Part shown: positions 29,425 to 42,335 of the stretch, in pieces
Numbering within the stretch: the stretch's first letter is position 1
Layout of the letters: each line of letters starts with the position of its first letter
Assembly (NCBI GenBank): GCA_052034955.1
Contig: JBPOHZ010000016.1
Span: forward strand, 41,273 to 105,272
Direction: 5' to 3'
Length of the DNA: 64,000 bases
DNA from: Candidatus Saccharimonadota bacterium
GTDB taxonomy: Bacteria > Patescibacteriota > Saccharimonadia > Saccharimonadales > AWTP1-31
Program-made: the position numbers and the translations under genes
Notes under the pieces: model-generated
Databases searched by the model: none
Told to the model about the DNA's origin: nothing
What the model saw: the letters and a program-made list of their open reading frames with translations, nothing else

Positions 29425-30168
29425 ATGACCACAACTATGGAGCAGGAATCTGCACATGATTTTTATACTTTAGAAGAACTGCATTTAGTAGAGCCTCTAA
29501 TTGAAGAACCTGAGATTCTTTCTAACTGGAAGTTGAATCGTCTTTTTGGCACCTTAATTGTTGCCCAAGCCCTAGAAGAAAGACGCACATTTGATGGGAC
29601 ACCTCGTGTCATTGGCGCCGATGAAGATGGTAAGGCGATAGAAAGTCCTAACTACAAACTGGATACAATGAAAGCTACAAAGGCCCAAAAAGAGCTTCAC
29701 AACCAAATGCGTAGAGATGGCATATACAATAAAGATGAACATGACATTAGAACAAAATGGGGTAGAATTTGGTCTGCACTACGGATAGATGAAATCCCAA
29801 CTGCGATTATCTATCCCCTTGCAGGTGTACATGACTTTTTCGGCAATACTCGTACCCTACTTCCGGCCGAACTAGAATCTCCACAGTTTTACCGAGCGCT
29901 AGAGCTACAAGAAGTTACAAAAGAAGAATTCCTTAAGCATATAAGAGTCGGTGTAATTAATGTTACCCAGGCATTTGGCGTCACAGAACTGACTACCCAG
30001 GAGAATTTCGACATATTAGTAATGTCAGTCATGATCGATCCCGATAATCCTAACTACCCTTCTAAAACAGACATGATTAAGGGTACCGTTAAAGATATTT
30101 GTAGCAAGATTAAACGAGAAGTCCGTAAAGAAATAGCAAAACGTAAAGCCGCAAAACTAGAAAAATAA
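29425..30168 (+). CDS. Hypothetical protein (247 aa), orphan
   Basis: GAGG RBS 7 nt upstream, own promoter and own terminator. No family recognised. C-terminal Lys-rich helix. Confidence 0.55.
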   Translation: MTTTMEQESAHDFYTLEELHLVEPLIEEPEILSNWKLNRLFGTLIVAQALEERRTFDGTPRVIGADEDGKAIESPNYKLDTMKATKAQKELHNQMRRDGIYNKDEHDIRTKWGRIWSALRIDEIPTAIIYPLAGVHDFFGNTRTLLPAELESPQFYRALELQEVTKEEFLKHIRVGVINVTQAFGVTELTTQENFDILVMSVMIDPDNPNYPSKTDMIKGTVKDICSKIKREVRKEIAKRKAAKLEK

Positions 30169-30171
30169 AAA

Positions 30172-30196
30172 ACACCCAGGAAACCCGGGTGTTTTT
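30172..30196. terminator. Bidirectional rho-independent terminator (orphan gene / tsf)
   Basis: ACACCCaGG-aaa-CCcGGGTGT followed by TTTTT, with an A-run on the other side. Confidence 0.8.
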
Positions 30197-32080: not shown

Positions 32081-32095
32081 CTTCATTATTTAAAA

Positions 32096-32129
32096 CAGTC
32101 AGAGCATAGAGTTCTGGCTGTTTTCTTTT
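32096..32129 (+). terminator. Rho-independent terminator after rpmE
   Basis: CAGTCAGA-gcatagagt-TCTGGCTG (one G-U pair) followed by TTTTCTTTT. Confidence 0.65.
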
Positions 32130-38884: not shown

Positions 38885-41824
38885 TTAAACCTTAGCCAGG
38901 CTAATGGTAAGCTCGTGGCCCTCTACCTTAACCGTCTCCTTATACTGGTAGCTTTCCTTGCCAGCAGTCATCTTGACGGTCAGCGTTTCAGTAGATATTT
39001 CTTTTTCAAAGACAGCAATCGCTCCGGAGACGTCTTTAACAGATGTATCTAGGTCCAGGTTAATCCTGTCATCGACGTCCAGACCTGCTTGTTTACGAGC
39101 ACTTTGGACCTGTCTAACGATCTCTCGCATCAGACCTTCTTGCCTTAATTCTGGAGTTAATTCAGTATCAAGATCTACCTTATAGACCTGTGGCAATCCA
39201 TTCTCCTGGATATTTTCTAGTACTGACTTATCGGCATCAATCTTGTGACTATCGAAAACAACCTGCTTTACATTGAGCTCTTCGGCAATTATTTCTAACA
39301 GATCTTGATCGAGGAAGTTATAGCCCTTCTGCAATGTCACTTTTGCCAGTGGCTGTCGGACTTTTATGCCCTTCTCGGCTCGAACTCCCAAACCAACCGT
39401 TATAAGCTGCCTGGCAATATGCATGTCTCGGATTACCAATTCGTTGATGTGTCCAACTTGCGGCCAGTCCAACAGGTGAACCGACTCACCGCCTGTAAGC
39501 TTGCGGTAGAGCTCTTCGGCCATGAATGGGGTGAATGGAGCTAAAACCAGCGAAAGTTGCGTCAGAACGTAGTGTAGAGTCCGATAAGCACTATCTTTGT
39601 CGCCATCGTCCCCGCTCTTCCAGAATCGGCGTCGACTTCGTCGAACATACCAGTTACTGGCGTCGTCTAGGAACGGTAATATCGGCTTGACTGCTCCCGA
39701 TAGGTCATAGGCTTCCATGTTTTTCTCGACTTCGGCCGTCAACTGGTGAACACGGCTAATGATCCAGCTATCCAGCGGGTTCTTGCACAGTTCTGTTGGG
39801 TCTTCGTGCTTCCCGTCCCACTCCCAGCCGTCTACCTCGGCATACATAGTAAAGAAGTCGTACATATTCCAAACCATAGATAACTTACGAGCTACGTCAC
39901 TTACATCTTTGTCGATAAGTGAGTAATCTTCACCACTCGACAGTGGGCTCTGTAATAGCAAGAAGCGAGCGCTATCGGCTGAATACTGATCCATCAACAA
40001 GTTTGGATCTGTATAGTTTCCGTAGCTTTTACTCATCTTGCGACCGTCATTCCCAGATAATGTTCCGGTAACGACCACGTTCTTAAAGGCGTTCTTTCCA
40101 AATAAACCAACGTTTACAGCGTGAACATAGTAGAACCATGCCCGAACTTGGCTGACATACTCAACAATGAAGTCACCTGGGAAGTTGGCTTCGAACTTCT
40201 CTTTGTTCTCGAATGGATAGTGGAACTGGGCGAATGGCATACTGCCACTCTCGAACCAACAGTCCATAACCTTATCTATTCGCTTGTAGTGAACTCCGTC
40301 GATATCGAATTCGATATCATCCACCCATGGACGGTGGTAATCTTCTAGCTCAACGCCACTAAGTTCTTTGAGTTCCGCATAACTTCCGACCACTTTGATC
40401 TGTTCCTTGCCATCCTTATCGGTACCCTTCCAAACTGGCATAGCAGTCGCCCAAAAGCGATCACGGCTTAGGTTCCAGTCCGGAGCGGTTTCGACAGTTT
40501 TCTGGAATCTTCCATGCTTAATGTGATCTGGAAACCAAGTTATATTTTCAGAGTTCTCGACCAACATTTGCTTCTTTTGACTTTGGATATCCATGAACCA
40601 GCTAGGGTGAGCCCGATACATGAGTCTTGTTCCGCATCGGTGGCAGTGCGGATAAGGGTGCTGGATGTAATCAATCTTCCAAACTACTCCACTAGCAAGA
40701 AGTTCTTTGGCGATTGTTTTGTTGATGTCCCAAACGTTTTCACCCTTCCAGTCTCCTTCGGTAAATATACCGCTTTCGTCCAAAGTGTGAACCACCGGAA
40801 TACCAGCTTCTTGGGCCAAGGCAAAGTCCTCTTCTCCATATGCCGGTGCAATATGAACAATTCCCGATCCGTCTTCGTCGCTAACATAATCAGCATGCCA
40901 GATTTGATGAGCTCCCTCACCTCGGTCGTCAAATAATGGCTCGTATTTCTTACCGACTAGCTCTTTACCCTTTAGAGTACGTAACTCTTTGTACTCTAAT
41001 GGTTGATGCTTTTCGTCAGTCATTACTTTTTCAACCAAAGCCTTAGCCAAGACTAATTTTTGGCCTTCAATTTCAATCTCCACATAATCCATATCATTAT
41101 GTACAGCTGTAGCGGTGTTTGCTGGCAATGTCCAAGATGTTGTAGTCCAGGCTAATAGTGAGTAATCCTCTCCAACAACCTTGAACTTCACATAAACACT
41201 AGGGTCAGTAACATCCTGGTAGGCTCCGGCATCCATGGTAACCTCGTTTTTACTGAGGGGAGTTGCGTCACGGGTACAGTACATTAGAACTCTTTCGCCT
41301 TCGTAAATTTTGCCCTTTTCGTACAGCTCTTTAAAGGCCCACCAAACAGACTCCATGAAATCTTTATCCATGGTTTTGTAGGCGCCCTTAAAATCTACCC
41401 AGCGACCAATTCGATCAATGGTATCTTCCCATTCACTTCCGGTTTGCACCATGTTTTCGCGGTTAGCTACTATGTAATCTTCCAGGCTGATCTTAGTGCC
41501 AATTTCGCGGCGATCGGTAATACCTAACTTCTTCTCGGTAAATGTTTCAGCTGGTAATCCGTGGCAATCCCATCCCCAACGTCGCTCAACTCGCTTGCCC
41601 TTCATCGTATGATAACGAGGCACAACGTCTTTAATAATAGAACTTAACAAAGTTCCAAAGTGAGGCGAACCTGTAATAAATGGAGGGCCGTCATAAAATA
41701 CATAGGCATTGTCTGCAGGTCGATTGCTGATAGACTTTTCGAATGTCTTATTCTTTTTCCAATACTCAACTAGGTCTTTTTCGTACTCTAGTGCTCGTCT
41801 TCGTGTGCCTGCCTTAAACTTCAT
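38885..41824 (-). CDS. ileS: Isoleucyl-tRNA synthetase, type 2 (eukaryote-like) architecture
   Basis: Trimmed to MKFKAGTRRR (TAGGAG RBS upstream); the 21 upstream codons of the track ORF lie over the leader terminator. FYDGPPFITGSPHFGTLL (HIGH region) and GRKMSKSYGN (KMSKS). Confidence 0.96.
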   Translation of the reverse strand: MKFKAGTRRRALEYEKDLVEYWKKNKTFEKSISNRPADNAYVFYDGPPFITGSPHFGTLLSSIIKDVVPRYHTMKGKRVERRWGWDCHGLPAETFTEKKLGITDRREIGTKISLEDYIVANRENMVQTGSEWEDTIDRIGRWVDFKGAYKTMDKDFMESVWWAFKELYEKGKIYEGERVLMYCTRDATPLSKNEVTMDAGAYQDVTDPSVYVKFKVVGEDYSLLAWTTTSWTLPANTATAVHNDMDYVEIEIEGQKLVLAKALVEKVMTDEKHQPLEYKELRTLKGKELVGKKYEPLFDDRGEGAHQIWHADYVSDEDGSGIVHIAPAYGEEDFALAQEAGIPVVHTLDESGIFTEGDWKGENVWDINKTIAKELLASGVVWKIDYIQHPYPHCHRCGTRLMYRAHPSWFMDIQSQKKQMLVENSENITWFPDHIKHGRFQKTVETAPDWNLSRDRFWATAMPVWKGTDKDGKEQIKVVGSYAELKELSGVELEDYHRPWVDDIEFDIDGVHYKRIDKVMDCWFESGSMPFAQFHYPFENKEKFEANFPGDFIVEYVSQVRAWFYYVHAVNVGLFGKNAFKNVVVTGTLSGNDGRKMSKSYGNYTDPNLLMDQYSADSARFLLLQSPLSSGEDYSLIDKDVSDVARKLSMVWNMYDFFTMYAEVDGWEWDGKHEDPTELCKNPLDSWIISRVHQLTAEVEKNMEAYDLSGAVKPILPFLDDASNWYVRRSRRRFWKSGDDGDKDSAYRTLHYVLTQLSLVLAPFTPFMAEELYRKLTGGESVHLLDWPQVGHINELVIRDMHIARQLITVGLGVRAEKGIKVRQPLAKVTLQKGYNFLDQDLLEIIAEELNVKQVVFDSHKIDADKSVLENIQENGLPQVYKVDLDTELTPELRQEGLMREIVRQVQSARKQAGLDVDDRINLDLDTSVKDVSGAIAVFEKEISTETLTVKMTAGKESYQYKETVKVEGHELTISLAKV

Positions 41825-42027
41825 TTTTTCTCCTAAAATAAAAATCACTTCTTTTGACTGCCAGATCCCGTATATGGGAGGTACCATCTGGCTTCCAAAA
41901 GAAGTGATTCTTTTAGCTCTTACTTGTCGCTATTACGGGCTGCCCGATTGGTTTTACTAAGCATTCGCTTTTCCTCCAACTGCTTCACGGTAGATAGCCG
42001 CTAATCTGTAACCAGAGTGCATTTGTA
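41825..42027 (-). promoter_or_regulatory. T-box riboswitch-like leader of ileS
   Basis: Minus strand reads GCCAGA-UGGUACC-UCCC-AUAUAC-GGGA-UCUGGC (41860-41892), which is helix / 7-nt UGGUACC bulge / helix / loop. It is enclosed by a 14-bp stem AAUCACUUCUUUUG / CAAAAGAAGUGAUU (41843-41856 with 41896-41909), followed by UUUUAUUUU and the SD. Upstream AGCG and GUGAAGC elements resemble Stem I motifs. Confidence 0.6.
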
Positions 42028-42033
42028 ATTTTT

Positions 42034-42062
42034 ACTATACTCCAACCCGGTCTTTTTCTCAA
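42034..42062 (-). promoter_or_regulatory. Promoter TTGAGA-17-TATAGT for the ileS leader
   Basis: Read directly on the minus strand. Confidence 0.5.
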
Positions 42063-42068
42063 GAGAGT

Positions 42069-42335
42069 CTATTTATCTTGAGTATAGTAAGAAACTTCGT
42101 TCATTAGTGGTAAAACTGGACCTTGCCACAATCGAAGCATTTTTCCTTCGTTATCCATGGCCAATATAGCTGGGTACTGAACGATATCGTGCCTGGCTGC
42201 CATGTCTGCCCCATCTCGAGATTCCAGGCTAATAAGCTCTATCTTACGGCCAGTTTGCCTCGAAAAATCACGGGCAAATGTCTCGATCATGGTCCCGTGG
42301 TCAGATTGAGGATGGTAAAGAATAACCGCTTTCAT
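42069..42335 (-). CDS. Hypothetical small protein (88 aa), possibly a thioredoxin-like fold without a CxxC motif
   Basis: The beta-alpha-beta style pattern MKAVILYHPQSDHG...KIELISL...YPAILAM... is only suggestive. There are no Cys residues. Confidence 0.45.
   Translation of the reverse strand: MKAVILYHPQSDHGTMIETFARDFSRQTGRKIELISLESRDGADMAARHDIVQYPAILAMDNEGKMLRLWQGPVLPLMNEVSYYTQDK

Follow-up and report, generated by a model that had tools for sequence, protein, structure and literature searches.

T-box riboswitches are a model system for the RNA-RNA sensing of tRNA charge. In canonical T-boxes (Rfam RF00230; tyrS and glyQS of B. subtilis) a long Stem I carries an AG bulge and a distal loop, Stem III is flanked by purines, helix A1 is followed directly on its 3' side by a 7-nt UGGNACC bulge, and an intrinsic terminator stands upstream of an aminoacyl-tRNA synthetase gene, the OFF state being more stable than the ON state. 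The 5' arm of that terminator consists of the 3' strands of A1/A2, and stacking of the tRNA on A1 decides the outcome. The discriminator motif has been defined as 5'-RRRxG-Stem III-AA-3' (PMC7583486, PMC11404447), and the RRRxG and AA flanks of Stem III are required for binding of the tRNA 3' end (PMC7583486). For control of transcription a T-box is generally said to require a long Stem I, equipped with a platform that binds the tRNA elbow (PMC7583486). In the actinobacterial ileS T-boxes (M. tuberculosis, M. smegmatis and N. farcinica; 'class II' in TBDB) the ultrashort Stem I is cut off at the specifier loop, an S-turn in Stem II and a Stem IIA/B pseudoknot make up for the missing platform, and the output is sequestration of the Shine-Dalgarno sequence (SD), the sequestrator taking the 3' strands of the antisequestrator. 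For the M. tuberculosis ileS T-box it was described that charged tRNA drives Stem III off the antisequestrator, while uncharged tRNA keeps the coaxial stacking (PMC12647780).

The ileS leader and its family

The stretch of DNA analysed here (the window, 64 kb) comes from a member of the Saccharibacteria (TM7). The ileS gene, which the leader under study is predicted to regulate, runs on the minus strand from an ATG at 41824 to a stop at 38885 (979 aa) and is preceded by an AGGAG SD (41834-41830). The first 268 residues of IleS show 65-82% identity to Saccharibacteria IleS. A start at the in-frame ATG 41887 (1000-aa ORF) was rejected as a mechanical extension through the leader; this ATG falls within A1 and the bulge, and 41824, with its own SD, is the real start. 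An 88-aa gene lies upstream of the leader, a synteny common to the window and to sister leaders with a canonical platform. No tRNA genes were found within the window.

All sequence elements listed in an earlier sequence-only reading of this region are present on the minus strand, to which the leader coordinates below refer. These include the putative sigma-70 promoter TTGAGA-17-TATAGT (42034-42062; -35 box 42062-42057, -10 box 42039-42034), which has the proposed sequence and spacing and agrees with the consensus at 10 of 12 positions across its 17-nt spacer. Such a match is not statistically unusual when taken alone (35 promoter-like sites in 20 kb against 36.9 expected). Its position, on the other hand, is conserved, as relatives have TATAAT-like boxes about as far upstream of where the conserved leader begins. 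From this promoter, transcription is predicted to begin near 42027, which would give a leader of about 200 nt.

The same reading had proposed a T-box-type leader and had set two checks for it, a match to the Rfam T-box model RF00230 and conservation of the bulge and of Stem I among orthologues. The first failed: in the window no RF00230 match appeared, whether the gathering score or E ≤ 10 was the limit, and the best permissive Rfam matches were chance miRNA and snoRNA hairpins. Likewise, no Rfam match reached the gathering score in 20 relatives. In a permissive search, 13 of 18 relatives matched RF00230 below threshold (E 1e-7 to 0.3), with scores in relatives of 24-49 bits versus a gathering score of 93. 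The second check held, since the UGGUACC bulge and a Stem I are kept in orthologues.

A covariance model (R1) was built from 35 orthologous Saccharibacteria ileS leaders, with the window left out. It matched the window at 42009-41859 with 118.3 bits (E 4e-29), covering model positions 1-155 of 155, and this was its sole real match in the 64 kb; in 81 sources the model returned 58 matches. RNAalifold applied to the relatives recovered Stem I, Stem II, Stem IIA, Stem III, A1 and A2, with compensatory changes in 27 of 31 pairs, where covariation counts are not corrected for phylogeny. The leader also folds better than its shuffled versions (z = -3.2; 1 of 200 shuffles equally good). The T-box assignment is thus borne out by the R1 match together with the sub-threshold RF00230 matches in relatives. 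On these comparative grounds the ileS leader is a real but very divergent T-box riboswitch, and sensing of tRNA is predicted for it.

Decoding domain and discriminator

Stem I is ultrashort (41981-42021). Its base helix pairs UGC (42021-42019) with GCA (41983-41981) and covaries among leaders (GC/GC, CC/GG, AC/GU, UGC/GCA); above it follow two hairpins, the inserted CUGGUUACAG (42015-42006) and GCGG-CUAUCUA-CCGU (42001-41987), which carries the specifier. In 40 leaders the specifier hairpin has a 4-bp stem and a 7-nt NNAUCNN loop. Its stem varies (GCGG/CCGC, GCAG/CUGC, GUGG/CCAC, GCGA/UCGC and others) with compensatory changes in all four pairs, and AUC is invariant. Of the three Ile codons AUU, AUC and AUA, all of which had been considered as specifiers, it is specifically AUC (41995-41993) that occupies this place. 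The base 3' of the specifier is U in the window (AUCU) instead of a purine; in relatives it is A or G in 36 of 39 leaders and C in L056 and L022. The distal platform of Stem I (AG bulge and distal loop) is absent, and Stem I stops at the specifier loop. The motifs GAUUAGCGG and GUGAAGC, formerly likened to the Stem I AG bulge and distal loop, turned out to flank the 4-bp, 7-nt-loop specifier hairpin instead.

Within Stem II (41947-41980) AGGAA faces AGUAAAA in an internal loop that resembles an S-turn, and the stem is capped by the hairpin AAGC-GAAU-GCUU. All of its 8 pairs show compensatory changes, the window aligns to model R1 in this part, and the corresponding GAA / AGUAGAA of relatives was aligned by Rfam to T-box Stem II. 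It is followed by the Stem IIA hairpin CGGGCAGCCCG (41946-41936), with a downstream IIB segment reaching to 41925. The IIA hairpin covaries, and its C-G and G-C pairs are invariant. The IIB pairing comprises 3-5 bp in most relatives, with lineage-specific complements, and 2 bp (GC/GC) in the window; in individual sequences it is not better than in shuffles. At the level of the family the lineage-specific complements support a predicted IIB pseudoknot, which is weak in the window.

[quoted passage not shown] Stem III is kept and covaries in 35 relatives. The self-fold AAAAGAA-UCAC-UUCUUUU (41914-41897), which had been noticed from the letters, is present and represents the positional homologue of Stem III. 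Helix A1, GCCAGA/UCUGGC, is formed by 41892-41887 with 41865-41860; directly 3' of its 5' strand lies the 7-nt bulge UGGUACC (41886-41880), and above the bulge helix A2, UCCC-AUAUAC-GGGA (41879-41866). In an alignment of 19 leaders A1 and A2 both reach 99% pairing, and 4 pairs of each helix show compensatory changes. Within the bulge UGGNACC only N varies, with UGGA in place of UGGU in L003, L005 and L010. UGGU would fit A73 of bacterial tRNA-Ile.

The pair that closes A2 is U-A in the window, not the usual G.U; a G.U (or G-C) pair at this place is a proposed steric sensor of the aminoacyl group, and the G.U pair couples this sensing to shearing of A1. Among leaders in which the terminator encloses A1/A2 as in the window (nested class; the 23 first examined), this pair is G.U in 10, G-C in 3, U-A in 5, A-U in 4 and A/C in 1, versus G.U in 15 of 15 leaders with a canonical terminator (canonical class). 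The window departs from studied T-boxes at three positions considered important in them, namely the U after the specifier, the U-A pair of A2 and the two-pair IIB.

Nested terminator and proposed mechanism

A1 and A2 are enclosed by an outer helix, in which a 5' arm (41909-41895) pairs with the 3' arm UCAAAAGAAGUGAUU (41857-41843). This helix measures 15 bp and can be extended to 18 bp (to 41912) through A-U pairs into the U-tract UUUUUAUUUU (41844-41835), which follows the terminator 3' arm. That the antiterminator is nested inside the terminator and does not compete with it had been suggested from the sequence of this leader, and the arrangement is conserved with covariation. The outer helix is kept in 33 leaders, with changes on both sides in 11 of 15 pairs, and the same enclosing hairpin is the minimum free energy (MFE) structure of every nested-class leader (33 leaders). 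When 19 leaders were simply aligned with MAFFT, the nested structure was paired in 90.4% of cells, versus 36-54% in a control in which the partners were slid by 1-3 columns; 19 of 25 pairs vary on both sides, and none of 500 shuffles scored as high. Without any alignment, each 3' arm pairs best with its own Stem III region (mean -14.6 kcal/mol, vs -7.5 kcal/mol for non-cognate combinations).

The 5' arm of the outer helix corresponds to the loop and 3' half of Stem III; consequently, Stem III and the terminator are mutually exclusive. A1/A2, which the terminator contains intact, are present in both the ON and the OFF state, and the excluded element is Stem III. As an alternative hairpin, Stem III is itself well conserved in the nested class (88% of cells paired vs 47-61% when slid; 7 of 9 pairs compensatory). 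The expectation that the switching logic might differ from the textbook design is therefore supported, the self-fold of Stem III supplying the missing competitor. A cryptic canonical terminator made of the A1 3' strand and downstream sequence was also considered and rejected; the 3' segment folds weakly (-8.4 kcal/mol) and offers no hairpin with a U-tract. Predicted energies in the window are -22.8 kcal/mol for ON and -36.1 kcal/mol for OFF, and the mean difference of OFF minus ON is -10.1 kcal/mol in the nested versus -6.4 kcal/mol in the canonical class. In the window Stem III gives way to the outer helix in the MFE structure after about 9 nt of the 3' arm have emerged and not before, a point at which, in this folding model, the polymerase would be in the U-tract.

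Taken together, we consider the leader to be probably a tRNA-Ile-responsive T-box with an ultrashort Stem I, which controls ileS by transcription attenuation through a rewired expression platform. During transcription Stem III, A2 and A1 would fold first, and tRNA-Ile would be held through pairing of its anticodon with AUC. If the tRNA is uncharged, its ACCA-3' end would pair with UGGU, Stem III would dock coaxially on A1 and the flanking purines would latch into the minor groove; Stem III docked in this way would withstand invasion while RNA polymerase crosses the U-tract, and ileS would be transcribed. With charged tRNA or none, Stem III would stay undocked, and the 3' arm, tethered 2 nt from A1, would displace its 5' half. 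The resulting hairpin of about 28 bp would stack on A1 and terminate transcription at UUUUUAUUUU. In this terminator form the RRRxG purines would lie about 18 bp from the bulge, and the terminator should therefore not bind the tRNA 3' end. The accepted coupling, in which stacking of the tRNA stabilises A1 against the terminator, cannot operate in such an arrangement, so that coupling through Stem III is an extrapolation. Kinetic protection by the tRNA might also be insufficient in view of the modelled energies, because OFF exceeds ON in stability by 13 kcal/mol and Stem III is a 9-bp hairpin rich in A-U pairs. We give about even chances to the broader proposal that the switch has moved from A1 to Stem III in a large, possibly ancestral group of Saccharibacteria, in which charge would be read only through docking of Stem III and the purine string, with A1/A2 as a static scaffold.

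The absence of the known coupling, with A1/A2 persisting in the terminator form, would also suit a decayed or constitutive attenuator, that is a T-box descendant that no longer senses charge and either stops a constant share of transcripts or simply shields ileS from transcription arriving from upstream. The window itself, which has no Rfam match and no G.U sensor pair, post-specifier purine or convincing IIB pseudoknot, fits such a descendant. However, purifying or compensatory selection is clear across dozens of species in every element that contacts the tRNA, namely AUC and UGG-ACC, both invariant, the RRRxG/AA flanks and the S-turn of Stem II. Moreover, Stem III is conserved as an alternative hairpin alongside the terminator, and a constitutive terminator would not need Stem III. 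We regard decay of the switch as unlikely.

The near-continuous duplex of about 28 bp could, alternatively, be no terminator at all and instead serve as a clamp or as a site of processing (for example a substrate of RNase III or a determinant of mRNA stability) that organises the discriminator, so that control would be exerted by cleavage, stability or translation. A precedent for processing is a T-box leader of S. aureus that is reported to be processed by RNase III (PMC7913692), and the stem adjoining the U-tract is A-U rich. Against such a role, at least four U follow directly after the 3' arm in 23 of 23 nested leaders first examined, even though the sequence of the arm varies, and terminators of like style (A-tract, hairpin, U-tract) occur elsewhere in the same genome at 30196-30168 and 32092-32124. 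In addition, the helix neither includes nor sequesters the SD, and sister leaders of canonical layout have an ordinary terminator at the same position. A function other than termination thus appears quite improbable.

Translational control, in which CCUCC beside the bulge would pair with the AGGAG SD as in the SD-sequestering actinobacterial ileS T-boxes, can hardly apply, since the 4-5 nt of complementarity in the window that had drawn attention to it (a duplex of -6.2 kcal/mol) are equalled or beaten by 15% of shuffles, pairing is at chance level and not conserved (no better than shuffles in the window or 19 relatives; shuffle fraction 0.085 to 1.0 across 20 nested leaders), and every predicted state leaves the SD unpaired, although two relatives, L055 and L058, appear to sequester a GGCGGGAG SD with the 5' strand of A2.

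Relation to known T-boxes

These leaders place T-box regulation in Saccharibacteria, members of the candidate phyla radiation (CPR) with very small genomes, and form a whole group that is missed by standard Rfam annotation. No paper linking T-boxes with Saccharibacteria, the candidate phyla radiation or Patescibacteria came up in the literature searched. A terminator that overlaps Stem III may already be mentioned in Li et al. 2019, Sherwood et al. 2015 or Vitreschak et al. 2008. A neighbour-joining tree of the IleS N-terminus, rooted at its midpoint, has the nested class scattered over the deep branches and the canonical class in one derived clade.

In dozens of natural leaders A1/A2 persist in both states, and it is Stem III that is given up. 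If these leaders respond to tRNA, they would single out what docking of Stem III and the purine string contributes, a contribution only recently implicated by single-molecule work, and would represent a natural separation-of-function variant in which docking of Stem III alone is able to gate an intrinsic terminator. They would further show that an ultrashort Stem I supports transcriptional control, a counter-example to the long-Stem-I rule. The relaxed G.U sensor pair might mean that charged tRNA is rejected in another way, and G.U may be dispensable here.

With the actinobacterial ileS T-boxes the leader shares the regulated gene, the AUC specifier and the lack of an elbow-binding platform, as well as the Stem II S-turn, Stem IIA, RRRxG-Stem III-AA and the A1/UGGN bulge/A2 arrangement. 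It differs from them in its host phylum, Saccharibacteria, and in its output, a hairpin with a U-tract in which A1/A2 remain whole and Stem III is consumed. The UGGNACC bulge directly 3' of A1, the purine-flanked Stem III, the intrinsic terminator ahead of a synthetase gene and the more stable OFF state are common to the leader and to canonical T-boxes, whereas the long Stem I and the use of the A1/A2 3' strands as terminator arm are not. A further comparison is offered by the sister Saccharibacteria leaders with a canonical platform (for example L025, L038 and L062), which have a homologous decoding domain and discriminator with the same UGGUACC bulge and are scored by model R1 at 124-135 bits. 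Their terminator, UCCAAUG-loop-CAUUGGA-U6/7, uses the A1 3' strand and does not involve Stem III. Lineage-specific remodelling of the terminator/antiterminator domain in an otherwise standard T-box is also described for stem Sa of the staphylococcal glyS T-box (PMC9177973). Stem Sa is inserted into a pair of competing structures, antiterminator and terminator, and the exclusive partner of the terminator is still the antiterminator, unlike in the present leader, where it is Stem III.

The ileS leader and its family

The leader elements named in the sequence-only reading were all recovered on the minus strand. A promoter-like TTGAGA-17-TATAGT (42062-42034, 10/12 matches) precedes helix A1 (GCCAGA/UCUGGC, 41892-41887/41865-41860), the 7-nt bulge UGGUACC (41886-41880) and helix A2 (UCCC-AUAUAC-GGGA, 41879-41866). 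A1, the bulge and A2 are enclosed by an outer helix (41909-41895 with 41857-41843) and followed by the U-tract UUUUUAUUUU (41844-41835), the SD sequence AGGAG (41834-41830) and the ileS start codon ATG (41824). This nested hairpin is exactly what the minimum free energy (MFE) fold of the 216-nt leader gives, with an outer helix of 18 bp, a 2x2 internal loop, a 6-bp A1, the 7-nt bulge and a 4-bp A2 (z = -3.2 against dinucleotide shuffles; window GC ~43%). Another ATG at 41885-41887 (minus), made of the last A1 base and the UG of the bulge, lies within the riboswitch in frame with ileS, so that ORF listing called a 1000-aa ORF; the real start is likely the ATG at 41824, which is preceded by the SD. 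An 88-aa ORF (42069-42335, minus) stops 7 nt short of the -35 box, and in 46/80 loci this gene is syntenic, preceding the T-box or ileS (tblastn identity mostly 32-63%).

For comparison, 80 ileS loci, each with 1.5 kb of upstream sequence, were collected. The closest relatives of IleS, 65-82% identical across its first 268 residues, are from Candidatus Saccharibacteria/Saccharimonadales metagenome-assembled genomes. TGGNACC, almost always TGGTACC, was present 60-190 nt before the ATG in ~45 of the 80 loci, in most at 60-100 nt. At gathering thresholds no Rfam family was matched anywhere in the 64-kb window, nor were tRNA or tmRNA genes found in it, and in a permissive search of 41750-42150 the T-box model was absent among matches with E<=10, which comprised only chance miRNA and snoRNA hairpins. 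Taken alone, this Rfam comparison, proposed in the sequence-only reading, would fail the T-box assignment. In E-value mode, full-length RF00230 matches (1-219) were obtained for 13 of 18 relatives (24-49 bits, E 1e-7 to 0.3); none of the relatives' leaders searched attained the gathering score, 93. Several relatives with such matches (ileS loci L009, L056, L012, L068, L040 and L041) have the layout of the window leader.

Subsequently, 35 relatives, with the window left out, were aligned with MAFFT over the span that begins at Stem I and closes with the 3' strand of A1. The RNAalifold consensus contained 31 pairs, 27 of them with compensatory changes, and comprised a 4-bp hairpin with AUC invariant in its 7-nt loop, Stem II (with AAGAA/AGUAGAA between its lower and upper helices), Stem IIA, Stem III, A1 and A2. 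The covariation among orthologs for which the sequence-only reading had called is thus present, and relatives keep both the TGGNACC bulge and the specifier hairpin. A covariance model of this alignment (R1) matched the window at 42009-41859 (minus) over model positions 1-155 of 155 (118.3 bits, E 4e-29), with no second real match in the window. This match places the leader in a Saccharibacteria ileS leader family, which is tied to T-boxes by the sub-threshold Rfam matches and by its anatomy. By predicted function and by descent, the window leader is a T-box.

Anatomy was compared with the part list of a review (PMC7583486). The specifier AUC (41995-41993, minus) lies in GCGG-CUAUCUA-CCGU, the Stem II S-turn is formed by AGGAA opposite AGUAAAA, the IIA hairpin is present, and UGGN is fixed at the 5' end of the bulge adjoining A1. 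The AG bulge and distal loop are absent from Stem I of the window leader, which is 'ultrashort', as in actinobacterial ileS T-boxes; GAUUAGCGG and GUGAAGC, previously likened to these motifs, only flank the specifier hairpin. U stands immediately 3' of the specifier, where 36/39 relatives have a purine, and the IIB pseudoknot has two possible pairs against 3-5 in most relatives, in which its complements are lineage-specific (AUCU/AGAU, AGUCU/AGAUU, CAGC/GCUG, UCGA/UCGA, AGCU/AGCU). The failed Rfam match is probably due to the missing platform, the U after the specifier, a U-A closing pair in A2 and the weak IIB. The Stem I 5' strand carries a small inserted hairpin, CUG-GUUA-CAG (42006-42015, minus), which separates the base helix (UGC, 42021-42019) from the specifier hairpin. 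Equivalent inserts occur in several relatives with a nested terminator (e.g. L056, L009, L041, L061), and leaders with a canonical terminator have GCGUU-UGAG and no hairpin at this site.

A predicted terminator enclosing the antiterminator

When the leaders were folded over the stretch that starts 55 nt upstream of the bulge and ends at the U-tract, they fell into three groups. In 15 canonical leaders (e.g. L025, L038) the terminator uses the A1 3' strand (...UUGGA UGGUACC GCUC-loop-GAGU UCCAAUG-loop-CAUUGGA-U6/7). In 23 nested leaders, including the window, a helix of 9-18 bp formed by the sequence 5' of A1 and that right before the U-tract surrounds A1, bulge and A2; 10 further cases with T-boxes farther upstream were found with R1, giving 33. 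The third group is small and has mixed platforms, described further below (6 leaders in the closing-pair count).

When 19 nested platforms were aligned by MAFFT without fitting, 90.4% of the cells of the nested structure were paired, compared with 36-54% when partners were slid by 1-3 columns. Two-sided changes were seen in 19/25 pairs of the structure and 11/15 of the outer helix, and none of 500 shuffles equalled the observed pairing or covariation score. In an alignment-free test, duplexes between the pre-U-tract arm and its own Stem III region had a mean energy of -14.6 kcal/mol, against -7.5 kcal/mol (sd 3.8) for non-cognate combinations, and the energy matrix was block-diagonal. At least four U directly follow the arm in 23/23 nested leaders first examined. 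The nesting of the antiterminator within the terminator stem, proposed from the window alone, is therefore real and conserved, with covariation and 33 leaders behind it. Elsewhere in the window, intrinsic terminators with A-tract, GC-hairpin, U-tract and 13-14 bp stems lie at 30168-30196 (minus) and 32092-32124 (plus), indicating that this genome uses the terminator style of the leader hairpin.

The outer helix takes its 5' arm (41909-41895) from the loop plus 3' half of Stem III. The alternative self-fold of this arm noted earlier (41914-41897) proved to be Stem III itself, at the same position as in canonical relatives and with conserved purine flanks. Across the 19 nested platforms the Stem III hairpin was 88% paired (47-61% when slid), with 7/9 pairs compensatory. 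Together with the outer-helix covariation this indicates that the same bases are selected to pair with two partners, which, as read from the alignments, is the signature of a switch.

A decayed or constitutive attenuator is argued against by this conserved dual pairing and by the strict conservation of AUC, UGG-ACC and the purine flanks. A role of the outer helix in clamping or processing instead of termination is likewise disfavoured, as the U-tract invariably follows the arm and sister leaders place canonical terminators at the same spot. Translational control through pairing of CCUCC with the AGGAG SD, suggested by the earlier reading, is at chance level, and a hidden canonical terminator was sought in the window leader and not found.

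The G.U pair closing A2 has been described as the primary steric sensor, whose displacement helps to shear A1. In the window this pair (41879/41866) is U-A. G.U is retained in 15/15 canonical, 5/6 mixed and 10/23 nested leaders, the remaining nested ones having U-A (5), A-U (4), G-C (3) or A/C (1); for nested against canonical leaders Fisher's p is 2.6e-4, uncorrected for phylogeny. The mixed-group exception, L022, probably has a mis-called A1. On a midpoint-rooted neighbour-joining tree of the IleS N-terminus, nested leaders are spread across deep branches, and canonical and mixed groups fall within one derived clade. From this spread, tentative as the midpoint root makes it, the nested design seems to be long-standing and stable, not an isolated case. 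The relaxed G.U and the tree spread are consistent with a changed coupling in the nested class.

Energetics and a proposed Stem III docking mechanism

In predicted folds, A1 and A2 persist in both the ON (Stem III with A1/A2) and OFF (nested terminator hairpin) conformers, at -22.8 and -36.1 kcal/mol in the window leader. The mean OFF-minus-ON difference was -10.1 kcal/mol in the nested and -6.4 kcal/mol in the canonical class; in both, OFF is the state favoured thermodynamically in the calculation, and ON would have to be protected kinetically. On truncation folding, Stem III was the MFE structure until ~9 nt of the 3' arm were available (transcript end 41849), beyond which the outer helix gained energy rapidly, also pairing the loop UCAC. 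Since ~12 nt are hidden in the polymerase, the flip would coincide with U-tract transcription, and modest stabilisation of Stem III could carry polymerase past the termination window. The complementarities, their conservation and the computed energetics are direct results of these analyses.

For canonical T-boxes the tRNA-A1 stack has been called deterministic of the ON/OFF outcome, since A1 is sheared by the terminator. Uncharged tRNA holds Stem III of the M. tuberculosis ileS T-box in a coaxial stack on the antisequestrator, and a charged-tRNA mimic drives it off (PMC12647780). From these points combined, the most likely logic of the window leader would be Stem III docking. Uncharged tRNA-Ile would dock Stem III and latch its purines, shielding it from strand exchange and permitting ileS readthrough. 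With charged tRNA or none, Stem III would be undocked, and the arm, tethered 2 nt from A1, would displace its 5' half and extend A1 into the long terminator hairpin. The OFF form, in which ~18 bp separate the RRRxG purines from the bulge, should therefore fail to hold the tRNA 3' end. For the window leader we infer tRNA binding, charge discrimination and termination.

Variation among relatives and comparison with known T-boxes

Other platforms were seen among relatives. In L055 (~400-470) and L058 (~1440-1500) the A2 5' strand (ACCGCCCGC) complements the SD GGCGGGAG located directly ahead of the ATG, an arrangement that resembles SD sequestration. The L019 pre-U-tract arm seems to pair with the A2 5' strand; in the MFE folds of L030 and L042 the arm's partners are the Stem III 5' half and the A2 5' strand plus loop, respectively, each with an extra hairpin between. 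These variants point to at least three switch wirings in one gene family of one phylum. Fourteen loci (L065, L019, L050, L007, L046, L079, L034, L052, L043, L031, L036, L014, L021, L020) carry the T-box 400-1400 nt upstream of ileS, leaving room for a further gene, which seems to sit between the two and would make a T-box-controlled operon. The T-box is absent from ~22/80 loci, of which ~10 have a TGnTATAAT-like -10 box ending ~6-10 nt before the ileS ATG (box within the last 30 nt: L033, L049, L051, L053, L064, L067, L072, L075, L076, L077, L080). On this basis, ileS mRNAs may be leaderless in a derived clade whose members are mostly animal-associated.

Among the papers open to searching, none that links T-boxes to Saccharibacteria, Patescibacteria or CPR was found, and a Stem III-overlapping terminator may conceivably have been mentioned earlier. 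The ultrashort-type model of TBDB was applied to Actinobacteria genomes and to sequences already detected by its class I model. The window leader departs from several formal T-box features: it scores below the Rfam threshold, has no purine following the specifier, lacks the G.U pair and has a terminator that does not exclude the antiterminator. Its nearest kin are the ultrashort-Stem-I ileS T-boxes of Actinobacteria, from which it differs by a predicted transcriptional output and by a terminator that spares A1 and A2.
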